Source of the DNA: Escherichia coli
GTDB taxonomy: Bacteria; Pseudomonadota; Gammaproteobacteria; Enterobacterales; Enterobacteriaceae
DNA: 64,000 nt
Reading direction: 5' to 3' (one strand)
Assembly (NCBI RefSeq): GCF_045037415.1
Contig: NZ_CP173440.1
Positions 28,530 to 60,902 of this stretch are shown here, piece after piece. Made by a program: the position numbers and the translations under genes. Under the pieces are notes generated by a model. It worked only from the letters and a program-made list of their open reading frames with translations, was not told the DNA's origin and made no database searches. The first letter of the stretch is position 1. Each line of letters starts with the position of its first letter.

Positions 28530-29284
28530 GTGTACATCGAAATACGGCTTATCAGGCGTTAAAAGATGCTTGCGATGACTTGTTTGCAAGACAATTCAGT
28601 TATCAGAGTCTTAGTGAAAAAGGTAACACTATTAATCACAAATCAAGATGGGTGAGCGAGGTGGCTTATATTGATAATGAAGCTGTCGTTAGACTTATTT
28701 TTGCCCCTGCTATTGTGCCTTTAATTACTAGGTTAGAAGAACAATTTACAAAGTATGAAATACAACAAATAAGTAATTTAACAAGTGCTTATGCTGTTCG
28801 TTTATATGAAATATTGATTGCATGGCGTAGTACTGGAAAAACGCCTCTCATAACTATGTATGATTTTAGACAAAAAATAGGTGTACTCGAGACTGAATAC
28901 AAACGAATGTATGATTTTAAAAAATATGTTTTAGACATTGCATTAAAACAAGTAAATGAACATACCGATATTATTGTCAAAGTTGAACAGCATAAAACAG
29001 GTAGATCTATTACTGGTTTTTCATTTAGCTTTAAACAGAAAAAATCAGCCACGCATTCAGTCGAATCTAAAAGAGATCCGAATACATTAGACCTCTTTTC
29101 AAAAATAACAGATAAACAACGCCATCTATTCGCCAACAAGCTCTCAGAGCTTCCTGAGATGAGTAAATATTCACAAGGCACAGAAAGCTATCAGCAGTTT
29201 GCTGTACGTATAGCTGCCATGCTGCAAGATGCAGAGAAATTTAAGGAATTACTTCCTTTACTCAGAAAATTAGGATTTCAATGA
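28530..29284 (+). pseudogene. Rep_3-family plasmid replication initiator, 5'-truncated by IS26 (Acinetobacter-type, as in Tn1548)
   Basis: C-terminal region ...LYEILIAWRSTGKTPLITMYDFRQKIGVLETEYKRMYDFKKYVLDIALKQVNEH...; low GC. Confidence 0.6.
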
Positions 29285-29350: not shown

Positions 29351-29893
29351 ATGAAAAAACTGTCAGTTTCAGAGTTAGCTAAGCTTTATGGATATTCAAG
29401 ACAAGCCATATATGCACATATAAACAAAGGAAATTTATCTAAAGGATCTGATGGATTAATTGACTTTTCAGAGGCCCTAAGAGTTTTTGGGGAACCACAA
29501 AAAAAAGAGGATACAGTCAATCAAAGTCAATCAATTAACAGTCAAAACTTGACAGAAGTTGACTTACTAAAACGTCAAGTTGACATACTGGAAAAACAAT
29601 TAAATCAGGCAATACAGAGAGAAAATCAATCTTTAGAACGTGAATCGTTTTATCAAGAACAGATTGAAGCTATGCAGCGCTTACTAGAAGCACCAAAAGC
29701 CAATATGACTACCTTTACCGATCAGAGCTTTAAACAGGATATAGCAACGGATCCTCGGTCGGAACTAGCAACGAACTATGACGAATTGACTACTCCTCAG
29801 CAAGACAATAAGCGTATTCCTATCCCGGAGCATGTTGAACCAGAACAGAAGAAGAGAGGCTTCCTAAGCCGCTTTTTCCTTCCATATGGTTAG
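29351..29893 (+). CDS. Hypothetical HTH DNA-binding protein downstream of the rep fragment
   Basis: 180-aa product with N-terminal HTH-like segment (LSVSELAKLYGYSRQAIYAHINKG) and a coiled-coil middle. Confidence 0.45.
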   Translation: MKKLSVSELAKLYGYSRQAIYAHINKGNLSKGSDGLIDFSEALRVFGEPQKKEDTVNQSQSINSQNLTEVDLLKRQVDILEKQLNQAIQRENQSLERESFYQEQIEAMQRLLEAPKANMTTFTDQSFKQDIATDPRSELATNYDELTTPQQDNKRIPIPEHVEPEQKKRGFLSRFFLPYG

Positions 29894-43662: not shown

Positions 43663-45180
43663 CTTTCGACTACCTCCCCTCAAAGCCATATCACGTACGT
43701 TAATCCTGACTTCATTAAAATCAGTGGTTTCACTGAGGAAGAACTATTAGGCCAGCCTCACAACATCGTAAGACACCCAGATATGCCGCCTGCTGCATTT
43801 GAGCATATGTGGAGTACATTAAAATCTGGCCGCTCATGGATGGGGCTAGTAAAAAATCGCTGTAAAAATGGCGACCACTATTGGGTAAGTGCTTATGTAA
43901 CGCCAATAGCTAAGAATGGTTCGATTGTTGAATACCAGTCTGTAAGGACCAAGCCTGAACCTGAGCAGGTTTTGGCTGCGGAAAAATTATATGCTCAATT
44001 GAGAAGCGGGAAGGCCGCGAGGCCGAAATTGGCTGCTAGCTTTTCCGTGAAAATACTCTTGCTCATATGGGGTAGTATTATATCAAGCGCAATGGCTGCC
44101 GGCATGCTTACTGATACATCAATAAGCAGCTTATTGTTAGCCACTTTAATGTCAGGAAGCTTAAGCTCTGTTAGTGTTTTGGCTATTCTCTCTCCTCTTG
44201 GAAGACTGGTTGAAAGAGCCAGGAATATTTCCAATAACCCATTAAGTCAATCCCTCTACACTGGGCGCACCGATGAGTTTGGCCAAATAGAGTTTGCTTT
44301 ACGAATGATGCAAGCTGAAACAGGCGCCATAGTAGGTCGCATAGGTGATGCATCAAATCGGCTTAGCGAACACACCCGAGGCCTACTAAAGGATATTGAG
44401 TCAAGCAATGTACTTACAGTTGAGCAGCAGGCAGAGACAGATCAAATAGCAACGGCAGTAAACCAAATGGTGGCAAGCATTCAAGAGGTTGCGAGCAATG
44501 CACAGCATGCTGCAGATGCGGCCGGAAGAGCAGACACTGAGACGGCATCTGGCCAGCGTCTGGTAGCCCACACAAGCCAGTCAATCACTGCCCTTGAAGG
44601 TGAAATTAGGCAAGCCACTCAGGTTATTCATGAGCTTGAAGGTCAAAGTAACGAGATATCAAAAGTTCTTGACGTTATACGAGGGATCGCCGAGCAAACG
44701 AATTTGTTGGCACTCAACGCAGCAATTGAGGCCGCGCGTGCTGGTGAGCAGGGGCGTGGTTTTGCTGTTGTCGCCGATGAGGTTCGCAGTCTTGCTGCTC
44801 GCACACAGCAATCGACAACGGATATTCAAAGCATGATCAGCGCTCTACAAGAGCGAGCGCAATCCGCTGTTACAGTCATGGAGCAAAGTAGTCGGCAAGC
44901 GCACACGAGTGTAGCTCACGCAGAGGAAGCAGCTACAGCTCTTGATGGAATTGGCCAACGCGTTAACGAAATTACCGACATGAACGCGCAAATAGCGACT
45001 GCGGTCGAGCAGCAGGGAGCAGTAAGTGAAGACATAAACCGCAGTATTATCAATATACGCGATGCTGCTGATACCAATGTACAGACCGGGCAGAATAATT
45101 TGCAAAGTGCGAAATCTGTCGCTCAGTTAACTAGCGCTCTGAGCGAACTGGCAAAACAGTTTTGGGAAAAACGAGGATAA
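43663..45180 (+). pseudogene. Methyl-accepting chemotaxis protein with PAS domain (Aer-like), 5'-truncated by IS26
   Basis: After the IS26 end the frame reads a PAS-like segment ([41 protein letters not shown]), two TM helices, then an MCP signalling domain ([35 protein letters not shown]). Confidence 0.75.
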
Positions 45181-45450
45181 CGCTTTTCAGTATCTCGACA
45201 GGGATAACTTACTTTACCATCGGTTATCCCTTTTAGCCGCACAAATTTTAGCCATGGCTTTTCAGGAAGTCAGGGCTATCAGAATGGCCTTAGAAAGCCT
45301 AGTCAAAGAGCTGTCACGAGAACACCGTTAGCTTAGCGTACGATTTTTTCCGAATTCTGCGGTTCCCCCTTTCATGGCTTTTCAGCTGAGTAATTCTCTC
45401 AATAAGCCATCTGAAATTACTGTATGACATTCTATCCTCTACAAGACATT

Positions 45451-46446
45451 TTAATCATTTGTGTTTGGTAATAAATTTAAAAGTTCGCCAGGTAATGTCT
45501 CGTCTTCTAGTAGCATAAAGTTCCCATCCAGAAACTCTAAGTTAATATATTCTCTGTATAGTTGAATATACTGATTAATGGTGTAACATAAGTTATTACA
45601 GATGATGCTACAGTTTTCTCCCCATAAGTCGTGCTCTTTCTGAAGGTTTTCATGCATTTCATAGGGTTCATTTTTTTTCCAGCTTTTTAAAACCATATAT
45701 CCTCTTCGCCCCATTTCCATATATCTAAACTCCATGAAATGTTTTTCAAGAGCAAGAATCCATGGGTACATTGCTTCAATTGCTTCTTTAAAACCCGGAA
45801 TATCATACGTTTGTTGATTACAAATGCCGACAATTTTCCTCAAATCCCTTAAAGTATCAGCTTCAATATAATTGGCAGACAAATTAGTGACAAAGAGGCC
45901 TGGCTGATCTAAAGGTAAATGCCTGACTAGGTAGTTATGTATAACCATTTCTTTCTTATATGAGGGCGTCTCGACATTCAAAAATGTTTTTAACTTTGAT
46001 GCTGGTAATTTCATTGCTAAACGGTGAAGGCTCGAAGAGCTGAAAACATCTGCGTGTTCTAACTTATAATCTTCTTTAATTTTCGCAAGAGTGGTATATA
46101 TCTCTTTTGGAAACCCCTGTTCTTTATCATTGATAACCGCATAAAAAACTTTAAACTCGCAAGACTCATTCCATGATTCTTTTATTTTTTCAACATCTGC
46201 TTTCATTTTTTTTATTGCAAATTTTATTGTTTCGCGATTTAATTCCTCCGGAGCGTATACTTGATAATATTCCCCTCGCTCTGGAATATAACCATCGTTA
46301 CCGCCATCACCTTTTCTTCCCCAAGGTTTGACCTTCCTGAATTTTTCAGGGTAAGATAACTCCATTACGGTTTCAAATAGTCTTTGATATTCTACACCGT
46401 TGCTACGGAGTATTTCTAAACGCATACGTGCCCAAAAATCTGACAT
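45451..46446 (-). CDS. Hypothetical protein with an N-terminal Mrr-type nuclease-like motif (WGRKGDGGNDGYI); AT-rich gene
   Basis: 331-aa ORF; G-D-G-G-x-D-G motif resembles the Mrr catalytic domain, but the usual (E/Q)-x-K lysine is not evident (YQVY). Confidence 0.5.
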   Translation of the reverse strand: MSDFWARMRLEILRSNGVEYQRLFETVMELSYPEKFRKVKPWGRKGDGGNDGYIPERGEYYQVYAPEELNRETIKFAIKKMKADVEKIKESWNESCEFKVFYAVINDKEQGFPKEIYTTLAKIKEDYKLEHADVFSSSSLHRLAMKLPASKLKTFLNVETPSYKKEMVIHNYLVRHLPLDQPGLFVTNLSANYIEADTLRDLRKIVGICNQQTYDIPGFKEAIEAMYPWILALEKHFMEFRYMEMGRRGYMVLKSWKKNEPYEMHENLQKEHDLWGENCSIICNNLCYTINQYIQLYREYINLEFLDGNFMLLEDETLPGELLNLLPNTND

Positions 46447-46707
46447 ATAAAAATTTCCTCGAAAATAGCAGATCTCTAATGTTTATCTATTCCTTATCAT
46501 CTTTTATTGGGAAAAACAACCTCAACGCATTAACTACCGAAAGTAAGCTTAAACGGGTGTGAAGGCCGTAACCATTTCCATCCAGATATAGCGAGACCAT
46601 TGTTCACATCCCACAACTGAACGAGGCCCAATTTAGCAATCCACCACGCAGAGAAAGTAAAGGAATCTTATGGCATAGATGCACGTAAGTGGTAAGGTAC
46701 TGGGCAT

Positions 46708-47625
46708 CTACAAAACCTTATTTCTAAGCCATCGAGCCAGTCCGGTGTCCAGTATGAGTTCGGCAAGCCTGATGGGGCCAATCATAGTGACTCCTTCAGC
46801 ACGAAGGTCCTCACTCAATGTCCCTCGATGCCAGACAAAGAACATTCGAGCATAGCTGTCACTGGTCTGGAACAGTGACAGATACTCAGAGAATACAGAC
46901 GGGTCAGCAACAGACTTCACTTGCACAAATGCCCGTTCGCCGGTAGTGGGCAGTTCAAGCTCAATGTCTACGGTCTTCTGTGTCCTCCCAAGGCACCCGG
47001 TTCTTCTCCATCCGCTGGCGGAAAAAATCAGATCTACCAGCAATTCAAAGTCCTGCCAGGTAAGTAAACTACACAGCCTCGTAATAGCCTTAAGGTACTG
47101 AGCTTCAGCAATATCCGCGTCTTTGATTTCCGGCGATTGCTCGTCGTTAATTTTCCGCAGGGCGTAATCGGCCAAACGCACATCGCAGATGGTACCCCGG
47201 TAACTCTGTGTAGCGAGCAAAGCACCGCTAAGGACGCTGTGGGAGAGAAGGTTTCCGGCCAGACTATGGTTGTGCCATCCGTTCACAGTGGGGCGGATCC
47301 TGCTGCCATCATCCAGTTCTGTGACTTCCCCGGAAGGCTGACACCAATACAATAATCCCTGGCTGAAAGTTATGAACAGCATATCGGGGGTGGCTGTGTA
47401 AAATGTCCTTATCTGCCTGACATCACTGGTGGCAGTGGACTGGTTATATTTCCTCTCTTCTAACCAGACTTTATTGACTTCTTCCCACTTTCCCTCAAGA
47501 CACATCTGATGGGGTGTTTTGTCGTAACCAAACCTAATAATGCCAGATGTCAGGCACTCACGTTCCCATTCGCCTCCCTCTCCCAGCTTGATGTATTTAA
47601 CTGCAGTAGCCCGAATCTTTTCCAA
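46708..47625 (-). CDS. Hypothetical protein with a C-terminal PD-(D/E)xK restriction-endonuclease-like domain
   Basis: 305-aa ORF; C-terminal FELLVDLIFSASGW...VDIELELPTTGERAFVQVK fits a D...E...QxK nuclease core; N-terminal ~190 aa unassigned. Confidence 0.5.
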   Translation of the reverse strand: MEKIRATAVKYIKLGEGGEWERECLTSGIIRFGYDKTPHQMCLEGKWEEVNKVWLEERKYNQSTATSDVRQIRTFYTATPDMLFITFSQGLLYWCQPSGEVTELDDGSRIRPTVNGWHNHSLAGNLLSHSVLSGALLATQSYRGTICDVRLADYALRKINDEQSPEIKDADIAEAQYLKAITRLCSLLTWQDFELLVDLIFSASGWRRTGCLGRTQKTVDIELELPTTGERAFVQVKSVADPSVFSEYLSLFQTSDSYARMFFVWHRGTLSEDLRAEGVTMIGPIRLAELILDTGLARWLRNKVL

Positions 47626-47713
47626 AATACAATCACTCCGTTAAACGAATATCCAGACAGAATAGGAGGTTCTGTCCAGCGCCCACAAAAAAGCCACTTT
47701 CGCGGGGTGTGTC

Positions 47714-48046
47714 TTATTTTTTCGCGACCAGATGAACACCTTCCGCTTTATCGGCGGCCAGCTGAATAAGCCCATCATACTCTTCAATCACATGATCATG
47801 ACCATGTACGGACCACTCACAGCTCTGACATTTAATCCCAAACCGCACCTCTCCGGAGTCGCAGCTCACTACTATAACCTTTGACAGACACCCACTGGGT
47901 TTCACGTTGTACTGAAGCTCGGCGTTCATATCAAACCAAACTTTATCGATACGAGTCTGTAGCTTCGCCTGAAAATCCGGGCGTGTTTCCGCCATCCTGA
48001 CGGCTTCAACAGATAATACCTTATATTTGCCCTGCTGAAGTGGCAC
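47714..48046 (-). CDS. Small hypothetical Cys/His-rich protein
   Basis: 110-aa ORF with CxxxxxxxC and CQSCEWSVHGHDH motifs suggesting metal binding. Confidence 0.4.
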   Translation of the reverse strand: MPLQQGKYKVLSVEAVRMAETRPDFQAKLQTRIDKVWFDMNAELQYNVKPSGCLSKVIVVSCDSGEVRFGIKCQSCEWSVHGHDHVIEEYDGLIQLAADKAEGVHLVAKK

Positions 48047-49109
48047 GCCAGGCCAGCGGCGTATGGCGGTGTCTGTCCAGAGACGGGAGTTCTTAAGTTG
48101 GTAGACGGTGATCCATTTTTCTGACCATTCATAAAATTTCTGGCATAGCAGCTTCTACAGCAAACTTTCGGTCACCAATTAAATCCCCTGGATTTTACCC
48201 ATACCTGCTCTTCCCTGGAATGTCGTTAATATCCACGGTATCAGGTCAGAGCTGTAACGACCAGCAGCGCCAGTGGAAATAGTCCGGCCAGTACCGGCTC
48301 CTTACCCCGGATTGATGTCTACTGTATGCGATAAATTTGGGAAAAACTGGCGATGGCCATTCTTCTGATTCTGATCGCCGGCAAGCGTGTCAGGTAGCAA
48401 AAGAGCGAACGTAAGACAACATACCCTTGAGGGTCCTGACCTTCAACGTGCCCGACCCGGCCCCCGCCGCGCGGACGAAAAAAAGAGAAAAAATAAAAAA
48501 AAAGAAAAAAAGAATATGCCGAAAATGTGCACAGTCGCGACCCACGCAGAGCGTGGCGCTCCGGGGCAAAGGCTTTGCAGGACTATAAGGCATGTTGTCT
48601 TACGTTTTGAGTGTGATGGTTACGAGCCCACCAGCTTTCATGAATTGTCCCGCCGGGTGGACTGCTATAAAGTGCATACCAGCACTGCAGCCCCTGCCGG
48701 TGATGAAGAATAATTCCGTTCAGGCGAGTATTGAGCAAGACCTTTACTACGTATTAAAACCTGGTACTCCGGGATGACGATGCCTGAGGTGCTTACCACC
48801 GGGAGAAGCAATTCGTTTATGGCGCCAGCAGCTGGTACCTGGCAGAGTTAAGTTCTTATCGCAAAGGATGATAAAAATGAGCCATGGCAAATGTGAGCCG
48901 ACAAACACGAATGCCGCCGATTACAAGCTGTACGCGCGATTCGATGCTGGTGAAACGCTTGAAAGCGTTTTAGCCTCTCCTCCGACCACGAAGCACAATA
49001 AAGTAACTTCTGAAGGAAACATCAGGACTGAACACAGAATGTGGATAGCGTGGAGAAAGAAGCATCCCAGACCACTCTGATTATCAGTGACGATTAATAA
49101 GGATAAAAC

Positions 49110-49424
49110 ATGCGAACGACAAGTATCACCCTGTGTCTGGTTTTGGCGAGTTTTGGTGTATCCGCTAAAATCCTTGCAGACCCAGACCTTACTTACCAGG
49201 CAAATAAAACGTGTGCTAAACGAGATGAACTGGAACTGAAAGTCCCTTTAGAAGCCAATAATCCCTACTCTCCCACATGGGGTTTGGACAAGGGCATGGT
49301 GCAGGCCACAATTGACGCACTGAAAGAAAATCCAGACATCGCCCCGACTGACTCTGTAGCCTGCCAACAGGCTGCAATAAAACAGTATCGGGCTGGGCAA
49401 AAACACTACAGTAAGCTCAGGTAG
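49110..49424 (+). CDS. Small hypothetical secreted protein (predicted signal peptide)
   Basis: 104-aa ORF with N-terminal MRTTSITLCLVLASFGVSA followed by a polar mature region. Confidence 0.4.
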   Translation: MRTTSITLCLVLASFGVSAKILADPDLTYQANKTCAKRDELELKVPLEANNPYSPTWGLDKGMVQATIDALKENPDIAPTDSVACQQAAIKQYRAGQKHYSKLR

Positions 49425-49628
49425 CTGCCGTGATGCCCACCAGCTGAAACCTGTGTGTGGTATAAAAACCCCGTAGCGCTGGTGCAAAACAGACCAGCGC
49501 ATTCCAGTTCTCAATCCCCTTCTGTGATGTAGGCCCCTGTCGCATTCAGACCTGAATAACCGTGCAGGGAAACATGTCAGTAAGCCATCTGGATACAAAA
49601 ACTGGTGGTATAGCCACTTTAGCTTAAA

Positions 49629-49649
49629 GCTAATGTATGCGTACATTAG
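49629..49649. repeat. 21-bp palindrome gCTAATGTAtgcgTACATTAGt followed by a T-run; partner of 50172-50192
   Basis: Read directly; the site at 50172-50192 is its exact inverse (centre cgca versus tgcg). Confidence 0.75.
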
Positions 49650-49666
49650 TTTTAAGTTTATGTTAT

Positions 49667-50149
49667 TTACCCTTCTCCCTTCCTGGATGCCTTAACCTGG
49701 GTCTGATAGTTGCGCTTTACCCGCTCAATTTCCGCCAGAGTTGCCGCCCAGTGCAGCCCTGCGGCGTGACGATATCTGGTTGCCATTTTTTCAACGGCCT
49801 CCGGAGTGCTGTCATCGCTGCGGTGCTGCCGTCCCTTCACCCCGAAAATTTCCACTATAAGCCACTGGCTACCGGTTCTGCCGAACAAGGCCTGACACAG
49901 CCGCCTCACGGCAAGCGGGGTCAGATCCGGGTCGGGATCATACGCGATGGTGGCAAAAATAAAACGCAGCATCTCAGAGGTTTTGTAGCGTTTTACCGCT
50001 GCCGCCAGCCGGGCAGCTCTTTGCGGCGCTTCCCAGCGGTCGTCGCTGTAACCTGCCACTTCAGAGAGATAGTCCTTCTCGAGTTGTTTAGCCGTGTAGC
50101 AACGTCCCCCCAAAAACATCCGCATAGCTTCTTTCGTTTCAGCTCTCAC
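49667..50149 (-). CDS. Hypothetical protein bracketed by the two palindromes
   Basis: 160-aa ORF MRAETKEAMRMFLGGRCYTAKQLEKDYLSEVAGYSDDRWEAPQRAARLAAAVKRYK...; no family recognised. Confidence 0.45.
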   Translation of the reverse strand: MRAETKEAMRMFLGGRCYTAKQLEKDYLSEVAGYSDDRWEAPQRAARLAAAVKRYKTSEMLRFIFATIAYDPDPDLTPLAVRRLCQALFGRTGSQWLIVEIFGVKGRQHRSDDSTPEAVEKMATRYRHAAGLHWAATLAEIERVKRNYQTQVKASRKGEG

Positions 50150-50171
50150 GAATCTTGTCCTCAGCCAAAGC

Positions 50172-50192
50172 TAATGTACGCATACATTAGCA
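50172..50192. repeat. 21-bp palindrome gCTAATGTAcgcaTACATTAGc, 23 bp upstream of the 49667-50149 start codon
   Basis: Read directly. Confidence 0.75.
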
Positions 50193-51095
50193 TTAAGTAT
50201 CCGGTTCAACAAAAATCAGGAAACCGATCTGATTTAGTGCATGTGGCTGTCTCTTTTGGATTATCGCTTTTGCGTTATGGTATACAGGTTACCCCTCCCC
50301 CTCTTTTCCCGCTGGTCTACTGTAGTCGACACAAAAGACAGGAACTGCGGTATGTCCTGATAATATTGTTTGAGTTTTAATCACGAAGCAGAGGGTATCG
50401 CATACAGTAGACACAACGCAGCCAGAATAACGCTCGATGTAAAATTTAGATCGTTGTCGCCTGCAGTAGACATTCCTGGTATCGACTCTGGTGCATCCAA
50501 TACTGACCCGTTCCCGGATCATGGCAGAGCATCCAGTAGACACGGTATGGAAGGACGTCAGTCCTCACCTTTCCGTCTGTTTTGACTGTGTCGGAGACGA
50601 CGGTTGCGGTTATTGTTGATGCCTTTGGCCGTCAGGTGAATACCTGTCAGTCAGGTAACTCTGTCGTTACATTTGATGCCCGAAAATCATAATTACCACA
50701 TATTAATCCGGGCATTCCGGAAAATTGTACCTGCCTGAAGAGTATCAAACGATACCTGTCTCCCCTCCTCTGAATTATCTGCTCAGTCGAGAACCTTGAC
50801 GATCGGGTGATTCAGTTTCGGCAAATGGCAGCATGATAATGTCAGCCAACAGCGTGCTGGTGAATTTATTGTCGGGCCAGACGAATTCTGTTTGTCACTG
50901 CATACTGCATGCCGGGCAGAGGAGTGAACAACGATCGAACTGAAACAGTTGCAGCGTCGTATGGAGAAAGAATGGGTTGGTTTCAGGCGGTGCTTCGGTC
51001 GGTTTCAAACAGTGTCTGACCGACTTCTGGTAAGTTTCTCCCTTGCTGTCTGGTGATTCTGTCTTGCCCGGATTGTTGACTATTGATGATGGTGT

Positions 51096-51104
51096 TTATC
51101 CACA
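51096..51104. promoter_or_regulatory. DnaA box (TTATCCACA) followed by an AT-rich tract, upstream of the repA iterons
   Basis: Consensus 9-mer read directly; AT-rich 51110-51180. Confidence 0.55.
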
Positions 51105-51214
51105 GCTTAGAATAATAACAGAAGCTTAACTAAAGCTAAGAAAAGGACAAAAAAGACTAATAAAAGAATAACGTTTTAGTGAGGCCTTGAACTACGGGGC
51201 TCTCAGGCCATCTC

Positions 51215-51346
51215 TGTCAACGCTGGCGGGTATTCTATCATTGCTGGCGGGTGAACCATCATCGCCAGAGGGTATACCATCAACGCTAACGGGGCAATTA
51301 TCATCGCCAGAGGGTAGATTTTATCAACGCCAGCGGGTAATCTGGT
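51215..51346. repeat. Origin iterons (about six ~22-bp repeats with core CAACGCTGGCGGGTA) immediately upstream of repA
   Basis: tcaacgctggcgggtattcta / tcattgctggcgggtgaacca / tcatcgccagagggtataccat / ... / tcaacgccagcgggtaatctgg. Confidence 0.65.
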
Positions 51347-51375
51347 AAAAATATCCACATCCGGGATTTTATAAA

Positions 51376-52260
51376 ATGGCCAATGATAACAATCAGTTAG
51401 CGCTAATTATCACTGAGCAAGATAAAAGTTCTGGTGAAGTTATACATTTGGTTCCTAACTCAAAACAGAGTATTCAACCTAAATCGCTACTGCGATTGGG
51501 GGTCTTTGTTCCGACAGTCAAGGATGGCAGCGACCCTATGGCACGAGGTCATGTCATCGATGCAACGACTGAGTTGTGTCGTCTTTCTTCTATCGCTGGA
51601 GAGGGGTACGAAAAGATTAGTATTTTTGGGCCCAGGCTTGATATGGATACGGATTTCAAAGTCTGGCTAGGGATCGTGGACACACTCGCCAACACGTTTC
51701 TTGAGCCTGATGGGACTGTTAGGGTCAATTTTATTGATTTTGCTTTCAGTTGTGGGCTTGCTACAAAACGAGTTGATTCAAGGTTAAGGAAACGTTTTAG
51801 CGACTCACTGACACGGATCCAGCACACCCATTTCCAGTTCATCAAAAACTCAACAGTAGAAGGGAAAAAAGTAAAGATCGACATGAGCCTGGTGTCTACT
51901 TCTTACTATGATGAGGGAACCGATGAGGTCATTATCAGGCCAAATCCGGATTTGAATACTCTGTATCGTGTCGACGGGAAGACCCGACTTTACTTAAAAA
52001 TATTGAAGACCCTGTCTCGAAAAGAATCAGCCCAGGCACTGTATCTTTATCTAGTTGAATTACCTGACCATTTTTATCGCATTGGATTCGACCGCTTAAG
52101 AGAACGGTTGCAGCTGACTTCACACAAAGGTGCTCAGAATGCGACGATAAAAAAAGCGTTAGAGCAACTGGATGAAGCTGGTTTTTTAAAATACACGATA
52201 GAAAAAAATCGTGGGGATTATGTACTGGTCATTCTTAGTCGAAACAAAAAAGTTACCTGA
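51376..52260 (+). CDS. repA: Iteron-binding replication initiator RepA (P1 RepA / RepFIB family)
   Basis: 294-aa product with LLRLGVFVPT, GPRLDMDTDFKVWLG, RKESAQALYLY and KKALEQLDEAGFL blocks shared with P1/RepFIB RepA. Confidence 0.8.
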   Translation: MANDNNQLALIITEQDKSSGEVIHLVPNSKQSIQPKSLLRLGVFVPTVKDGSDPMARGHVIDATTELCRLSSIAGEGYEKISIFGPRLDMDTDFKVWLGIVDTLANTFLEPDGTVRVNFIDFAFSCGLATKRVDSRLRKRFSDSLTRIQHTHFQFIKNSTVEGKKVKIDMSLVSTSYYDEGTDEVIIRPNPDLNTLYRVDGKTRLYLKILKTLSRKESAQALYLYLVELPDHFYRIGFDRLRERLQLTSHKGAQNATIKKALEQLDEAGFLKYTIEKNRGDYVLVILSRNKKVT

Positions 52261-52399
52261 GTTATTTAGGTAAAATCAGTCATTTACATTACACACTGAC
52301 TCCAGAGTGTAGTTTCAAGAGTTCGGGTTTTTAGCTAACGCAGCAAACCGCACCAGGTAATTACCCTCCAGGGATGAGGCTTTACACCAGCAGCACCCT

Positions 52400-53520
52400 G
52401 TTTACCCGCCAGCGTTGAGGATGACCACCAGCAGCGACCACGCTTACCCGTCAGCGTTGAGGATGGTCACTGGTATCGCCCCTGTTTACCCGCCAGCGTT
52501 GACGGTGACCACCGACAGCGGCCACGCTTACCCGCCAGCGTTGAGGATGACTACCGGCAGCGGTCCCGTTTACCCGCCAGCGTTGAGGATGACTACCGGC
52601 AGCGGTCCCGTTTACCCGCCAGCGTTGAGGATAGCCACCGTCAGCGGCCACGTTTACCCGCCAGCGTTGAGGATAGCCACCGTCAGCGGCCCCGTTTGCC
52701 CGCCAGCGTTGAGGATGAGCACCGGCAGCGGCCACGTTTACCCGCCAGCGTTGAGGATAGCCACCGTCAGCGGCCACGCTTACCCGCCAGCGTTGAGGAT
52801 AGCTACCGTCAGCGGCCACGCTTACCCGCCAGCGTTGAGGATAGCCACCGTCAGCGGCCACGTTTACCCGCCAGCGTTGAGGATAGCCACCTTCAGCGGC
52901 CACGTTTACCCGCCAGCGTTGAGGATGAGCACCGTCAGCAGCCCCGCTTACCCGCCAGCGTTGAGGATAGCCACCGTCAGCGGCCCCGTTTGCCCGCCAG
53001 CGTTGAGGATGAGCACCTGCAGCGGCCCCGCTTACCCGCCAGCGTTGAGGATGAGCACCGTCAGCAGCCCCGCTTACCCGCCAACGTTGAGGATAAGCAC
53101 CGTCAGCGCCCCCGTTTGCCCGCCAGCGTTGAGGATGAGCACCGGTAGCGGATCCGTTCACCCGCCAGCGTTGAGGATAAGCACCGTCAGCGGTCACGTT
53201 TACCCGCCAGCGTTGAGGATAAGCACCGTCAGCGGTCACGTTTACCCGCCAGCGTTGAGGATGAGCGCCGTCAGTGGATCCGTTTACCCGCCAGCGTTGA
53301 GGATAAGCACCGTCAGCGGTCACGTTTAACCGCCAGCGTTGAGGATGAGCGCCGTCAGTGGATCCGTTTACCCGCCAGCGTTGAGGATAAGCACCGTCAG
53401 CGGTCACGTTTAACCGCCAGCGTTGAGGATGAGCACCGGCAGCGGCCCTGTTTGCCCGCCAGCGTTGAGGATGAGCACCGGTAGCGGATCCGTTTACCCG
53501 CCAGCGTTGAGAATGATTCC
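52400..53520. repeat. Tandem array of ~26 imperfect 42-bp repeats (TTACCCGCCAGCGTTGAGGAT + variable 21 bp); core is the inverse of the origin iteron
   Basis: Periodicity and unit read directly; CCCGCCAGCGTTGA is the reverse complement of the upstream iteron core TCAACGCTGGCGGG. Confidence 0.85.
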
Positions 53521-55259: not shown

Positions 55260-57190
55260 GTGCGCCGGGGAACCGGTTAGAGATCAAGGGGTGAAAGTCC
55301 CCGACCATTGAAGGACCAGCAATCCACAAGGTCCCCGAGTCATGCGTTGCATACCGCGAGGTATGGGGCGAAGCGTTGACAGGGGTGTTGACAGGCCAGC
55401 CATTGAGCCACGAAATGTATATTAAATTACCGGGTGCCGACGTTGTACTGTTAACGGAAGGCAACATCATAGGGTGCGATACTGCGAGTGCCACATGGAC
55501 CCGGCGGGGTCTGAGACCCTGGCATGTCAATACGATCTCTACGCGGGAACCGGGAGATCTCCCCTCTGACCATCTGCCAGTGTCGGAGATGGCCCGCACC
55601 GGGAAGACGAGGAGTCATAGCCGGTGATGTACGGAGAGGAGAAGTCGGACTCGCTCATAGTAGCGGCGAAGCAGGCGAACAACCCGAAAGGAGCGGAGTC
55701 AGTGGAGCGAAGGAGCGGGGCCAAGGGGAACGCGGAACAGCCACACATGCGCCGGACACAGAGCCGGGAAAGCATGTCACAGAGGCTGTCACGCGTGCGG
55801 GAAGCTGCGAAGCAGCGGAAGAAAGAACGGTTTACAGCATTGTTCCACCTGCTGACAGTCGAAGCACTGGAAGCCGCATTCCTCTCCCTGAGCAGGAAAG
55901 CGGCCGCCGGAGTGGATGGCATCAGGTGGATGGACTACGCCGGAAACATGAAGAACAACATAACAGATCTGCACCGGAGGCTACATCAGGGCAGCTACAG
56001 GGCGCAGCCCGGCAGGCGTCACTACATCCCAAAAGCGGATGGAAAACAACGCCCGCTCGGCATCGCCTCGCTGGAGGACAAGATCGTCCAGTATGCGCTG
56101 GTGAAAATCCTGAACGCAGTCTATGAAAACGACTTTATGGGGTTCTCATACGGGTTCAGACCCGGGCGAAGCCAGCACGATGCACTGGACGCACTGGCCA
56201 CAGGGCTGGTACGCACTAACGTAAACTGGGTACTGGATGCCGACATCAGTCAGTTCTTCGACAGGGTGAGCCACGAATGGCTGATCAGGTTCACAGAGCA
56301 TCGGATCGGCGACCGGAGGGTAATCAGGCTCATACGTAAGTGGCTCACAGCCGGGACGTCGGAGGAGGGTCAATGGCGAGCAACGGAGGAAGGCACCCCA
56401 CAGGGTGCGGTCATCTCACCGCTGCTGGCAAACATATACCTCCACTACGTCTTCGATCTGTGGGCGCATCAGTGGCGACGTCGCTATGCCACAGGCAATG
56501 TGGTAATGGTCAGATACGCCGATGACATCGTCATCGGGTTCGACAAACGATACGATGCCCGGCGCTTCCGTATAGCCATGCAGCGCAAACTGAGGGAGTT
56601 CGGACTCACGGTTCACCCGGAGAAAACCCGTCTGATGGAGTTCGGCCGCTTCGCTGCCGAAAACCGTGCCATCAGGGGAAAAGGCAAACCAGAAACGTTC
56701 AACTTCCTCGGGTTCACGCACATCAGCGGGAAAGATCGCAACGGCAGGTTCATGCTGATACGAAAGACCCGCCGGGATCGGATGACGGCAACTCTGAAAG
56801 CCATCAAAGACGGTCTGCGAAGGCGCTGGCATTACTCAATCCCCGAACAGGGAAAATGGCTCAGGAGAGTGGTTCAGGGATACCTGAACTATCACTCGGT
56901 ACCGGGCAACTTCCCCACCATGCAGAAGTTCAGGACACACGTAACAAACCTCTGGCGCCGGGCGCTCAGGCGCAGGAGCCAGAAGGATGATACGACCTGG
57001 ACGAAAGCAAACAAACTGGCAGCCGCATGGCTACCAAGGGTTCGGGTTCTTCATCCATGGCCTGTGGAGCGGTTCACCGCCAGACACCCGAGGCAGGAGC
57101 CCGGTGCGTAAATCGCGCACGCCGGGATCTGTGCGGGGGGTATCCGGTAACGGGTATCCCTACCGCGACATCAGTGAAAAGACATGAGAT
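55260..57190 (+). mobile_element. Group II intron (starts GTGCGCC) encoding an RT/maturase; 3' end approximate (within ~30 bp)
   Basis: 5' GTGCGCC at 55260; intron-encoded protein with RT domains 0-7 and X; ~80 nt follow the RT stop, as expected for domains V-VI. Confidence 0.7.
55624..57111 (+). CDS. Group II intron-encoded reverse transcriptase/maturase, no endonuclease domain; N-terminal start uncertain
   Basis: AAGVDG, PLGIASLEDKIVQ, SYGFRPGRSQHDAL, DADISQFFDRVSHEWL, PQGAVISPLLANIYL and YADDIVI motifs. Confidence 0.9.
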   Translation: MMYGEEKSDSLIVAAKQANNPKGAESVERRSGAKGNAEQPHMRRTQSRESMSQRLSRVREAAKQRKKERFTALFHLLTVEALEAAFLSLSRKAAAGVDGIRWMDYAGNMKNNITDLHRRLHQGSYRAQPGRRHYIPKADGKQRPLGIASLEDKIVQYALVKILNAVYENDFMGFSYGFRPGRSQHDALDALATGLVRTNVNWVLDADISQFFDRVSHEWLIRFTEHRIGDRRVIRLIRKWLTAGTSEEGQWRATEEGTPQGAVISPLLANIYLHYVFDLWAHQWRRRYATGNVVMVRYADDIVIGFDKRYDARRFRIAMQRKLREFGLTVHPEKTRLMEFGRFAAENRAIRGKGKPETFNFLGFTHISGKDRNGRFMLIRKTRRDRMTATLKAIKDGLRRRWHYSIPEQGKWLRRVVQGYLNYHSVPGNFPTMQKFRTHVTNLWRRALRRRSQKDDTTWTKANKLAAAWLPRVRVLHPWPVERFTARHPRQEPGA

Positions 57191-57196
57191 CTTCCC

Positions 57197-58333
57197 ATGA
57201 CAGATAAAACCAAACTGGTTGCTATCTCACGAACCGATGACATAAGTGCTCTGGATGCACTCAAGCTGTTGCGGTTTCGCCGGTACAATACGGCCAGAAG
57301 TCAGTTAAGGGTCACGAGTGTCTGGTCTGCATGGTGCGCCAGGCACGGTCTGACCCCCTTCCCGGTCACAGCGGTTGATGTCGAGCGCTATATTAATGGG
57401 CTGAATGGATCCGTTAAAATGGCGACTATCTCTCATTTTATTGCATGCCTTTCAAGCGTTAACAGCAGCCTGGGTTTTCCAGACTTCCGCAACGTTCTGA
57501 TAAAAGCACTGGTTCAGGTATGGCGGGCGCGGGAGAATGAGAAAAAAATCGTCACCGGTCAGGCCCTTCCATTTCTTATATCCGATCTCAATATTCTTCG
57601 CCGGTCGCTGCATAAAAGCGACGACCTGAGAGACATACGGGACCTTGCAATGATATGGGTTGGGTTTGAAACCCTGCTGCGTAACGTGGAAATTCGAAGG
57701 ATTAAAACCGGCGACCTGAAATGGCAAAATGACACGTCCTGTTACCTTCTGGATGTCATGCGGACCAAGACAAGCCTTTCAAGTAACCTGACATTTCAGC
57801 TCTCACCACAATGCAGTCAGCATGTCAGACGGTTGATTGAGACGGTGGAATACACCGATACCGAAACCTTCGGGCACCGTTTTCTTTTTCAGCCTGTAAA
57901 CATCCATACGAACCGATATTTCCCGTCCACCAGCAGTAAGCTATCCCGGGGTAAATCCATAGACAGGATGCTGGTCAAAGCAGGATTCAGTGAGGGGTTA
58001 CTGACGCAGTTACAGAATGAATCAAAGGTATCACGGGAAGATGTTGGAATGCTGTCCTCTAATTCACTGAACCAGGCATTTGCACGCCTCTGGGGGATTG
58101 CCGGGAAGGTCAGCGACAGTAACCGACAGTCCGGGCGGTACCGGACATGGACAGGACACAGTGTGCGTGTGGGGGGAGCCATAGAGCTGTTTAAGGCCGG
58201 GTACTCACTGGAAAAGATTACCGAGATGGGGAACTGGTCTGATCCAAAGATGGTCTTCCGTTATATCCGTGGATATCTTGCCAGTGAAAAAGCCATGGTA
58301 AGCTTTATGCGTAATCATCTGGACGACATATAG
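57197..58333 (+). CDS. Cre-like tyrosine site-specific recombinase
   Basis: 378-aa product; C-terminus GHSVRVGGAIELFKAGYSLEKITEMGNWSDPKMVFRYIR parallels the Cre catalytic H-x-x-R...W...Y region. Confidence 0.6.
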   Translation: MTDKTKLVAISRTDDISALDALKLLRFRRYNTARSQLRVTSVWSAWCARHGLTPFPVTAVDVERYINGLNGSVKMATISHFIACLSSVNSSLGFPDFRNVLIKALVQVWRARENEKKIVTGQALPFLISDLNILRRSLHKSDDLRDIRDLAMIWVGFETLLRNVEIRRIKTGDLKWQNDTSCYLLDVMRTKTSLSSNLTFQLSPQCSQHVRRLIETVEYTDTETFGHRFLFQPVNIHTNRYFPSTSSKLSRGKSIDRMLVKAGFSEGLLTQLQNESKVSREDVGMLSSNSLNQAFARLWGIAGKVSDSNRQSGRYRTWTGHSVRVGGAIELFKAGYSLEKITEMGNWSDPKMVFRYIRGYLASEKAMVSFMRNHLDDI

Positions 58334-59191: not shown

Positions 59192-59946
59192 TTTTCCTCC
59201 AGAGGCTTTAATCTTAATTTGACCACGTTAACCAGTTTCATTACTCCCGCCTCATCCGGTACGAAAATGTAACGACATCTCGGCCATGTCGCGTGTGTAA
59301 ATATCTTACCAGCGGTGTTGATATTCAGAGGCATAAGCCTTTCAGTCTTACTCAACGGCATTTTCTCTATCGGGATCAACCCTGACTTAAAACTTTTTAT
59401 CATTAAGTCGAGAGGGGTTTTACAATCTTTATTGCTCATCGTTTCTGTGTAACGGATCATCCCGGCAATCGTTACCTGTATCGTTCCTATATCAGATTCG
59501 AATTTCGGCAGCACCGGCCAGTAAGGAATTTCAAAATCCACACTGGTAAGCGCCTGTTCGTAACCCTGCTCATTTGTTTCTGCAACCGTTTTAAGGCCTG
59601 GAAACCGGGCGTGCATAAATTTGATAATCTTTACCACATTGGGCGTGCTGGCCTGACGCTGATATATCTCTGGCAGCCATGTGGACGTGGTGGCCCATGT
59701 CGTGGTGCATGCATAAGTTTTTTGCTCCATATGCCATAAAATAGAGGTGTCAGCCAGGAAGTGATGAACAGTCAACAGCTCGGCCAGCAGCCGATCTTCA
59801 TCTGGATGTGTTATGGCATTTTTGAAACAGACCTGTACACGAAAACGTTCTTTTGCAGACAGAAAAGTGTTTCCCCTACTGACGGCCACTTTGTATAACC
59901 TCCTGGCCGGATCAGCTTCACAAATCCCGGTTAAAATCCGGCTCAT
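59188..59946 (-). CDS. Hypothetical protein (252 aa), translationally coupled to the upstream gene
   Basis: Start overlaps the stop of 59943-60902 by 4 bp. Confidence 0.45.
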   Translation of the reverse strand: MSRILTGICEADPARRLYKVAVSRGNTFLSAKERFRVQVCFKNAITHPDEDRLLAELLTVHHFLADTSILWHMEQKTYACTTTWATTSTWLPEIYQRQASTPNVVKIIKFMHARFPGLKTVAETNEQGYEQALTSVDFEIPYWPVLPKFESDIGTIQVTIAGMIRYTETMSNKDCKTPLDLMIKSFKSGLIPIEKMPLSKTERLMPLNINTAGKIFTHATWPRCRYIFVPDEAGVMKLVNVVKLRLKPLEEK

Positions 59947-60902
59947 TTTGACTCCCTGATGACTTCCACCAGCCCTATACGGGGCAGGACAGAACGATAT
60001 TTTTCATTAAAATCGCCGCGCTTCTGCCTTTCACCTTTTACGTAATTTTTTAACGGATTAAACCGGCCCGGTTCGCTGAACAAAATTAATGGTAAAGGCG
60101 CGCGAAAGTTGAGTTTGTACGGCCCATGAACATCATCTGGATCTTCAGGACTGGTGTACCGGATATTGACGTTAACAGCCGGAAAGTTACTTTCCCGGAT
60201 AAGCCGAAATTTTCTCAAATTTTCATCGTCATGACTCACTTCATCATTGAGCAACGACAGCATCATGATTTCTTCGGTTCGTTCCTGTTTCAGCCGTTTA
60301 ACATCCTGTTTTGTCAGACTGATATCCGGCTGGAGCTCAGTTATCTCCCTGCGTAAGCGGTCGATAACCGTTTCCAGCCGGGTAAATTTATGAATGACAG
60401 GGATTTGCCAGGTGAACCCCAGGGAGCGAATTTGCTCAGTAACGATCCGGATATTACGGGACACCTGTAAAGTCACCAGCCACGGGTAAACCTGGTGCAG
60501 AATTTCTGACCGGGAGTCCTGGTAATGAGTGATAGCTTTTACAGCATCAGCAAATTTGTCACGAAGCCGGTTGATTTCACCCACCAGCGACATCACCTGA
60601 TCATGATTGTTTCTGACCACAACGAACCCGGGGTATTTTCGGGTGATTTTGGTTGAATAATGCTCATCCCTGACATGGACTTTATCAACCCGCTGCTGCC
60701 GGTAAATATCCACCAGGGTGTCGACGTCGGGTACCGAATGAGTCACATTGATTTCCTGTGGCGGATTCAACTCCTCAACACTACGGGGCTCCGGGAGCGA
60801 GGCAAGGTAAGATGAGCCGATATCGCTGTGACGGAGTAAACTGTGCAGCTCACCGAGTTTGCGTAGTTGCTCTTCGTTGTAATGGGCAAAGTCAGTATTC
60901 AT
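59943..60902 (-). CDS. Hypothetical protein with weak Tus-like (replication terminus-binding) similarity
   Basis: 319-aa product; C-terminal blocks APLPLILFSE and YRSVLPRIGLVEV resemble Tus PTPLIALIN and LRLIIPRLHLY; from memory, not searched. Confidence 0.4.
   Translation of the reverse strand: MNTDFAHYNEEQLRKLGELHSLLRHSDIGSSYLASLPEPRSVEELNPPQEINVTHSVPDVDTLVDIYRQQRVDKVHVRDEHYSTKITRKYPGFVVVRNNHDQVMSLVGEINRLRDKFADAVKAITHYQDSRSEILHQVYPWLVTLQVSRNIRIVTEQIRSLGFTWQIPVIHKFTRLETVIDRLRREITELQPDISLTKQDVKRLKQERTEEIMMLSLLNDEVSHDDENLRKFRLIRESNFPAVNVNIRYTSPEDPDDVHGPYKLNFRAPLPLILFSEPGRFNPLKNYVKGERQKRGDFNEKYRSVLPRIGLVEVIRESK

Follow-up and report, generated by a model that had tools for sequence, protein, structure and literature searches.

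A 38-nt purine tract at the centre of an ancient cis-acting element, possibly a replication terminus, of IncHI-family plasmid backbones

Why a large plasmid should keep a stretch of DNA made almost entirely of A is the question raised by one locus in the window, the 64,000-nt stretch analysed here, which is near-identical to pKpvST101_5, a Klebsiella pneumoniae IncHI1B/IncFIB-type megaplasmid (210 kb). We found cgGACGAAAAAAAGAGAAAAAATAAAAAAAAAGAAAAAAAGAAtatg at 48472-48515, where an earlier note had reported an A-dominated purine tract, and confirmed it as the window's most A-rich stretch: its best 40-nt count is 33 A, the next best A or T window has 27, and over 200 block shuffles the count averaged 24.3 and never exceeded 27. 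The tract itself occupies 48477-48514 on the plus strand (T-rich on the minus strand) and comprises 32 A, 5 G and 1 T in 38 nt. It consists of purine runs of 17 nt (48477-48493) and 20 nt (48495-48514) separated by a T at 48494; among all purine runs of the 64-kb window, these halves rank first and second in length. The extreme low complexity that the earlier note described is therefore genuine, but its picture of an isolated run is not, since the tract lies at the centre of a conserved 199-bp unit. The pair of 18-nt inverted repeats around the tract, at 48408-48425 and 48589-48606, had been overlooked.

The unit (48408-48606) is non-coding and ends in these inverted repeats, with 163 nt between them. 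The left arm (48408-48425) reads AACGTAAGACAACATACC, or GGTATGTTGTCTTACGTT outward on the minus strand, and the right arm (48589-48606), its inverted repeat, reads GGCATGTTGTCTTACGTT; the 12-mer ATGTTGTCTTAC forms exactly one inverted pair in each clade-A (IncHI1B/IncHI5-type) locus fetched. Between the left arm and the tract lies a G+C-rich, more variable segment (48426-48476) that holds the palindrome CCGCGCGG (48467-48474). Adjoining the tract on its other side is a conserved core (48515-48560) with the palindromes TGTGCACA (48526-48533) and GTCGCGAC (48534-48541) and a hairpin or palindrome, CCACGC-AGA-GCGTGG (48542-48556). Between this core and the right arm, a variable segment (48561-48588) contains GCAAAGGCTTTGC, a small palindrome at 48566-48578, together with the arm's inner extension. 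The only annotation at the unit is a doubtful 67-aa ORF in one GenBank record. No relevant Rfam family was found at E up to 1 in the 9 kb around the tract (44000-53000), a promoter and terminator scan found neither a sigma-70-like promoter nor a terminator inside the unit, and, in the library searched, no relevant paper turned up for the arms or tracts of either clade. The unit is apparently a so far undescribed non-coding element of 199 bp. The nuclease-like genes said to flank the tract are only partly borne out: on the left, the best that the 305-aa ORF shows is a sub-threshold match to Mrr_cat (E 0.0023, 18.5 bits; cut-off 21).

A 251-nt query retrieved the unit from 1278 plasmid records at 1281 places, nearly all in Klebsiella or Raoultella, and it is single copy per plasmid in ~1,280 IncHI1B/IncHI5-type plasmids. 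In E. coli genomes it was found on plasmids only and on no chromosome, and the arm-spacer-arm pattern had two matches among 100,044 species-representative genomes. The weakest and most divergent BLAST matches span exactly arm to arm, with unalignable flanks outside; judged by these alignments, the unit is discrete and its limits are the arms. One 4.9-kb contig labelled as a Bacillota bacterium MAG (JAEYMU010000032.1) carries the Klebsiella-plasmid unit with its flanks and is probably mis-binned.

We compared the window with IncHI5, the most divergent lineage, segment by segment. The tract is identical at 38/38 positions, the left and right arms at 16/18 and 17/18, and the adjacent core at 43/46; identity falls to 30/51 in the G+C-rich segment and 20/28 in 48561-48588. 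Mean identity of the tract over 11 diverse copies is 97%, and in the most distant close relatives neighbouring parts of the unit drop to 59-71% where the tract stays 38/38. This contrast indicates that the tract is under selection rather than a neutral simple repeat and, on these comparisons, is the most strongly selected part of the unit. The earlier note had suggested a slippage-prone tract and proposed looking for length variation among related plasmids. Such variation exists: in a 15-sequence sample picked to span the diversity, we observed changes of -1, -2, -3 and +1 nt and one 19-nt tandem duplication. Frequent change does not, as length variants are rare and most copies identical. Since the indel sizes are not multiples of three, a coding role of tract or unit is ruled out on either strand. 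Non-coding indels of these sizes among mostly identical copies do not match the pattern of a contingency locus, and the tract is best described from this record as a selected sequence with occasional slippage, not a contingency tract. The largest variant seen is that of pC3001-3 (NZ_CP039793.1, 3010-3260), where AAAAAAAGAGAAAAAATAA is repeated. In pK185_rmpA2 (NZ_MK347226.1, 3100-3340), a 34-nt tract alone is reverse-complemented, without flanking repeats and with the rest of the unit unchanged; this sole such record in the sample is either an assembly artefact or a genuine micro-inversion.

In IncHI5 plasmids (L004 and L005), the segment between the arms is reversed, and both flanks are homologous, up to the arms, to those of the window and of locus L003. 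An orientation census with native and in-silico flipped queries found the native arrangement in 1129/1280 plasmids and no genuinely flipped one, whereas the IncHI5 arrangement occurs in 83 plasmids (82 at >=99% identity) and is inverted in all 83. Uniform orientation within each lineage implies one old inversion, not an active switch; an actively invertible switch is contradicted by this census. The tract is still identical after the inversion (38/38), and the comparison points to a single old event, fixed per lineage, after which selection on the tract continued. As the inverted unit is still selected, its function is independent of orientation relative to the neighbouring genes, which argues for action at the level of double-stranded DNA. 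The precise inversion between the arms did occur in evolution, and a tyrosine recombinase gene (57197-58333, plus strand; Pfam Phage_integrase, E 2.5e-11), beside hha in all IncHI backbones, lies 8.6 kb from the unit. Its product is an alternative candidate partner of the arms, which would be its crossover or binding sites; the unit would be an invertible switch or resolution-type site and the A-tract would bend or stiffen the segment. In IncHI5, the unit sits between divergently oriented genes, as would suit such a switch. Against this reading, orientation is fixed in all the lineages counted (including 1399/1452 plasmids of the sister clade described below), the promoter scan found nothing inside the unit, and the arms are 163-219 bp apart rather than two half-sites around a short spacer. 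We regard it as distinctly unlikely.

A homologous unit exists in more distant plasmids. Iterons aside, the longest inverted repeat with a spacer in a complete IncHI2 plasmid is a perfect pair of 19 nt, 219 nt apart, with the pyrimidine tract AACTTTTTGTTTTCTTTTTATTTTCTCC at its centre. This sister unit was found in 1452 records at 1452 places, again single copy, in IncHI2, IncHI1 and a Pantoea plasmid. Gene order is shared between the window and the IncHI2 plasmid (hha, a 355-aa gene, a 158/160-aa gene at 47% identity, then the unit), and in MAFFT alignments the IncHI2 unit aligns with the reverse strand of the window unit. The tract core TTTTTATTTT is invariant across IncHI1, IncHI2 and IncHI1B/HI5, the CGCGG..GGGCAC motifs of the G+C-rich segment are common to both units, and the hairpin is at the same position. 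The earlier note had also raised curved DNA or an H-NS site. The spacing of A-runs is ~9 bp in the window tract and ~5.5 bp in the IncHI2 homologue, a difference that argues, from sequence, against a conserved phased bend. Counting both unit types, ~2,700 large resistance and virulence plasmids of the IncHI family hold one copy of the element. It is an ancient cis-acting part of their backbones, with the tract at its centre. In one member of the sister clade, IncHI1 pS164-CMY-227k, a 31-nt imperfect inverted repeat (28877-28907 and 29430-29460) brackets the 158-aa gene, which is opposite in orientation, relative to the 355-aa gene, to that of the window; this region may be a second inverted segment of the neighbourhood.

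The arms differ between clades (GCATGTCCTCATCCC versus GTAAGACAACATGCC) yet remain complementary. Six of 15 arm pairs and two of six hairpin pairs (8/21 in total) changed on both sides between clades, and 99.1% of arm and hairpin cells pair across clades, compared with at most 47% when the 3' partner was slid by 1-3 columns as a control. One hairpin pair change arose independently in the L003 lineage and in clade B (IncHI1/IncHI2). This pattern is what a structured RNA or single-stranded DNA would leave, with the arms as a long closing stem, short G+C-rich hairpins and a 35-nt unpaired loop, rich in U (or A), for protein binding or as a template. Folding agrees (minus strand -81.8 kcal/mol, z = -6.0; plus strand -70.2, z = -3.9), as does an RNAalifold covariation term of -4.39 across clades, with the tract always unpaired. 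Within the clade, however, covariation is negligible (-0.57), the arms complement each other almost perfectly, G-U versus A-C showing no consistent preference for either strand, and the IncHI5 inversion, still selected, would swap an RNA for its complement. The Rfam, promoter and terminator searches likewise gave such a transcript no backing, and the flanks are unconserved. Pair counts, moreover, cannot tell base pairing from two co-evolving protein sites. On balance, we consider a structured nucleic acid unlikely. A template RNA of retron or DRT type was rejected, with no reverse transcriptase gene adjacent in any locus examined.

The cross-clade homology also bears on whether the tract has any function. 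The tract might be a simple repeat prone to slippage, what is left of an RNA-derived insertion, or a MITE fragment, and the length variants, the terminal inverted repeats and a group II intron reverse transcriptase gene nearby could be cited in favour. That gene does lie 7 kb away, as the earlier note had stated (55624-57111, plus strand; RVT_1, E 7e-47), between hha and the recombinase gene. In IncHI5 pA324-IMP and in metagenome contigs, hha and the recombinase gene adjoin each other and the intron is missing, which marks it as a lineage-specific insertion; pKpvST101_5 has another copy of the reverse transcriptase ORF elsewhere. The proposed link between tract and intron fails because the tract is identical in intron-less pA324-IMP, and the search for target-site duplications came back empty, with no direct repeats flanking the tract or the unit ends. 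A retroelement poly(A) insertion is rejected on the same grounds and by the tract's presence in the IncHI1/IncHI2 homologues, and a MITE or other transposable element by the lack of end duplications, the single copy per plasmid and the absence from E. coli chromosomes. The tract is moreover the best conserved part of the unit, homologous across clades whose Tus proteins are ~25% identical, and the rarity of the pattern among species-representative genomes does not suit a mobile repeat. Cross-clade homology, as read from the alignments, excludes recent common ancestry as the source of the conservation. A functionless tract is thus very improbable. Of the readings that the earlier note offered, most are not supported.

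The unit keeps its synteny with hha in all clades, and IncHI plasmids code for proteins of the H-NS family. The unit also holds several short, conserved, operator-like palindromes, and its function is independent of orientation. These features suit a platform for nucleoid-associated or regulatory proteins (H-NS/Hha or another regulator), in which poly(dA:dT) nucleates or excludes binding and so controls the neighbours or repB. The neighbouring genes vary by lineage, however, so there is no constant regulatory target, and the platform leaves unexplained why 18-nt arms are kept as inverted repeats ~200 bp apart. Poly(A) without TpA steps is also not known as a typical high-affinity H-NS site. 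We judge this explanation improbable. Separately, the 16-nt motif TCGCATACAGTAGACA occurs in five copies with <=3 mismatches (0.36 expected), at 48316-48331 and 50314-50329 on the minus strand and at 50398-50413, 50457-50472 and 50527-50542 on the plus strand. One copy lies upstream of the small gene left of the unit and is conserved in IncHI5; the motif may be an operator for some regulator. At 48183-48206 (minus strand), an ORF stops after 7 codons (ATG GGT AAA ATC CAG GGG ATT TAA) where IncHI5 and p_b127b_NDM1 have a 113-aa gene, and it is probably a pseudogene in the window plasmid.

A pair of co-evolving protein sites requires a protein, and the window encodes a candidate. An ORF of 319 aa (59943-60902, minus strand), 11.4 kb from the unit, is a full-length homologue of Tus, matching Pfam PF05472 (Ter) over profile positions 10-293/296 with E 5.5e-23 and 81.9 bits (cut-off 22). 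It is 23% identical to E. coli Tus by BLASTP, with K89 and H144 aligned and identical; the E. coli query agrees with PDB 1ECR at 694 bits. The gene sits in a conserved block with ORFs of 135, 252 and ~107 aa that is syntenic in IncHI1, HI2, HI1B and HI5. Tus at >=80% identity was found in ~1310 plasmids, compared with ~1280 carrying the unit, and the distant Tus clade in ~1433, compared with 1452 carrying the sister unit, and the host-genus distributions of both Tus clades match those of both unit types. Such co-distribution is expected of any two backbone features and is not independent evidence; the neighbouring tyrosine recombinase is as co-distributed with the unit as tus. Plasmid-borne tus genes are known, and their Ter sites have not been described (PMC6549158).

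Read outward, the arms are GG(T/C)ATGTTGTCTTACG, i.e. GG(T/C)ATGTTGT. In the E. coli Ter core, GTATGTTGTAACTA, this equals G6 and the stretch from position 8 to 14; the non-permissive end of Ter is at positions 4-6 (PMC4499146). When the arms are aligned to Ter through ATGTTGT, which is an assumed alignment, the G6 (non-permissive) ends of both face the interior. The full Ter consensus (a G-C at position 6 and the core (A)TGTTGTAACTA) is not reproduced: Ter positions 15-19 (AACTA) find no match in the arms, and the strictly conserved GTTGTAACTA is absent from the arms, which are CTTAC-type there. In IncHI1/IncHI2, the arms share only GGNATG with the Ter-like motif. With Ter half-matched in one clade and so little shared in the other, the likeness could be due to chance. 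Besides the two arms, the 210-kb plasmid has no exact copy of the motif, and further Ter-like sites were limited to near matches at chance level; a search for GNRNGTTGTAACKA with <=2 mismatches gave nothing above chance, and no Ter-like site was found upstream of tus. Shewanella pSx1 has no comparable unit within 20 kb of its tus. A word-indexed search for intermediate Tus relatives returned only sequences at >=75% identity, on contigs that ended before the expected position of the unit.

Taken together, we tentatively favour, at a little short of an even chance, the reading that the unit is a plasmid replication fork trap and a new variant of Tus-Ter. We infer that Tus binds the arms and that forks stop there. 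The unit would be the plasmid's replication terminus, with each arm an asymmetric, polar binding site for the plasmid-encoded Tus homologue, so that forks could enter the 163-bp interior from either side and could not leave, an arrangement shared with the R6K terminus and the chromosomal Tus-Ter trap. A symmetric arm pair would make inversion of the whole unit neutral, as seen in IncHI5, and would also account for the ~200 bp arm spacing. Two sites co-evolving with one protein would diverge between clades and yet stay inverted repeats, as the arms have done. Within the trap, the tract and palindromes would, we infer, serve as a stiff, easily melted, priming-poor spacer or pause zone, or as a site for a further protein. 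Known Ter biology leaves the conserved tract, the 46-nt core and the co-varying internal hairpin unexplained. That the unit is the cognate terminus of the plasmid-borne Tus with an interior that itself functions in termination, unlike chromosomal Ter sites, is possible but doubtful.

The position of the unit relative to replication origins can be set against the fork-trap reading. The nearest origin, 2.6 kb from the unit, is that of repB (Rep_3 family; gene at 51376-52260 on the plus strand, region 51213-52600), which has iterons on both sides: 21-nt iterons upstream (51213-51340) and six iterons spaced 42 nt apart downstream (52356-52600). As the iterons flank repB itself, 2.6 kb away, the unit was rejected as oriV. 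The window's second most A-rich 40-mer (27 A), at ~51132 just upstream of the repB iterons, may be the unwinding region of that origin. A trap 1.3-2.8 kb from repB would make that replicon effectively unidirectional, as in R1 and R6K. Cumulative GC skew of pKpvST101_5 changes sign a few kb from the unit: it has its maximum at ~4.9 kb, with the unit at 8.2 kb, and a minimum plateau that ends at 113 kb, at the second rep gene; this first profile used a partly chimeric reconstruction. For the IncHI2 plasmid, cumulative skew is lowest at the RepB gene, and the terminus plateau includes the unit. With a resolution of tens of kb in mosaic plasmids and a chance expectation of ~0.3 per plasmid, GC skew is weakly consistent with a terminus at the unit. 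The unit is at 0.50 of the circle from the second rep gene in the 210-kb plasmid and at 0.27-0.31 in larger relatives, and a location diametrically opposite that gene is therefore weak as a rule. An origin of transfer was also considered: a virulence-plasmid oriT identical to that of an IncF helper plasmid has been reported (PMC8299605). In IncHI2 NZ_MF344580.1 (143276-143358), mobI is preceded at a distance of ~330 bp by an inverted repeat of 16 nt, AAAAGTGACCCTATGA / TCATAGGGTCACTTTT, which appears a likelier oriT than the unit.

Several known systems resemble the unit in part. The R6K terminus described by Horiuchi and Hidaka in 1988 reportedly consists of two inverted Ter sites of 20 bp, to which the host's Tus binds and which both act as polar barriers. 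As in R6K, inverted repeats of ~18-20 bp form a closely spaced pair at an asymmetric position near an origin, and the plasmid is an iteron plasmid of Rep_3 type. The unit differs in that its candidate Tus is plasmid-encoded and 23% identical to that of E. coli, that its arms match only Ter G6 and positions 8-14 and are 163-219 bp apart, and that its interior is strongly conserved, with a 38-nt purine tract and palindromes. Some details of the R6K terminus are given in PMC10331603, which also covers plasmid R1, where Ter sites beside oriR make replication run one way. A putative barrier near the origin would do the same here. With chromosomal Tus-Ter, the unit has in common a Tus-family protein with H144 and K89 conserved, and G6 and ATGTTGT in the sites; unlike chromosomal Tus-Ter and R1, it lacks the canonical GTTGTAACTA core and has only two sites per replicon. 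Like fimS and Bacteroides invertons, it is a segment of ~160-300 bp between inverted repeats that exists in nature in both orientations. It departs from them in keeping one orientation in each lineage, in showing no promoter and in having no recombinase gene next to it.

Among the IncHI-family megaplasmids are the hybrid virulence and carbapenemase plasmids of Klebsiella. On IncHI2 plasmids mcr genes are found as well, and the IncHI1 type is that of typhoid Salmonella. A Tus homologue is encoded by all of them, and no DNA target has so far been named for it. The candidate target proposed here, two arms of known sequence in two co-diverged versions, offers a directly testable plasmid-Tus system and is relevant to the idea that chromosomal Tus-Ter is a domesticated plasmid system. 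Should the fork-trap model prove wrong, the conservation of a non-coding element of ~200 bp in all IncHI clades would still need explaining; if the model is true, the element would explain how termination is coordinated in multi-replicon megaplasmids.
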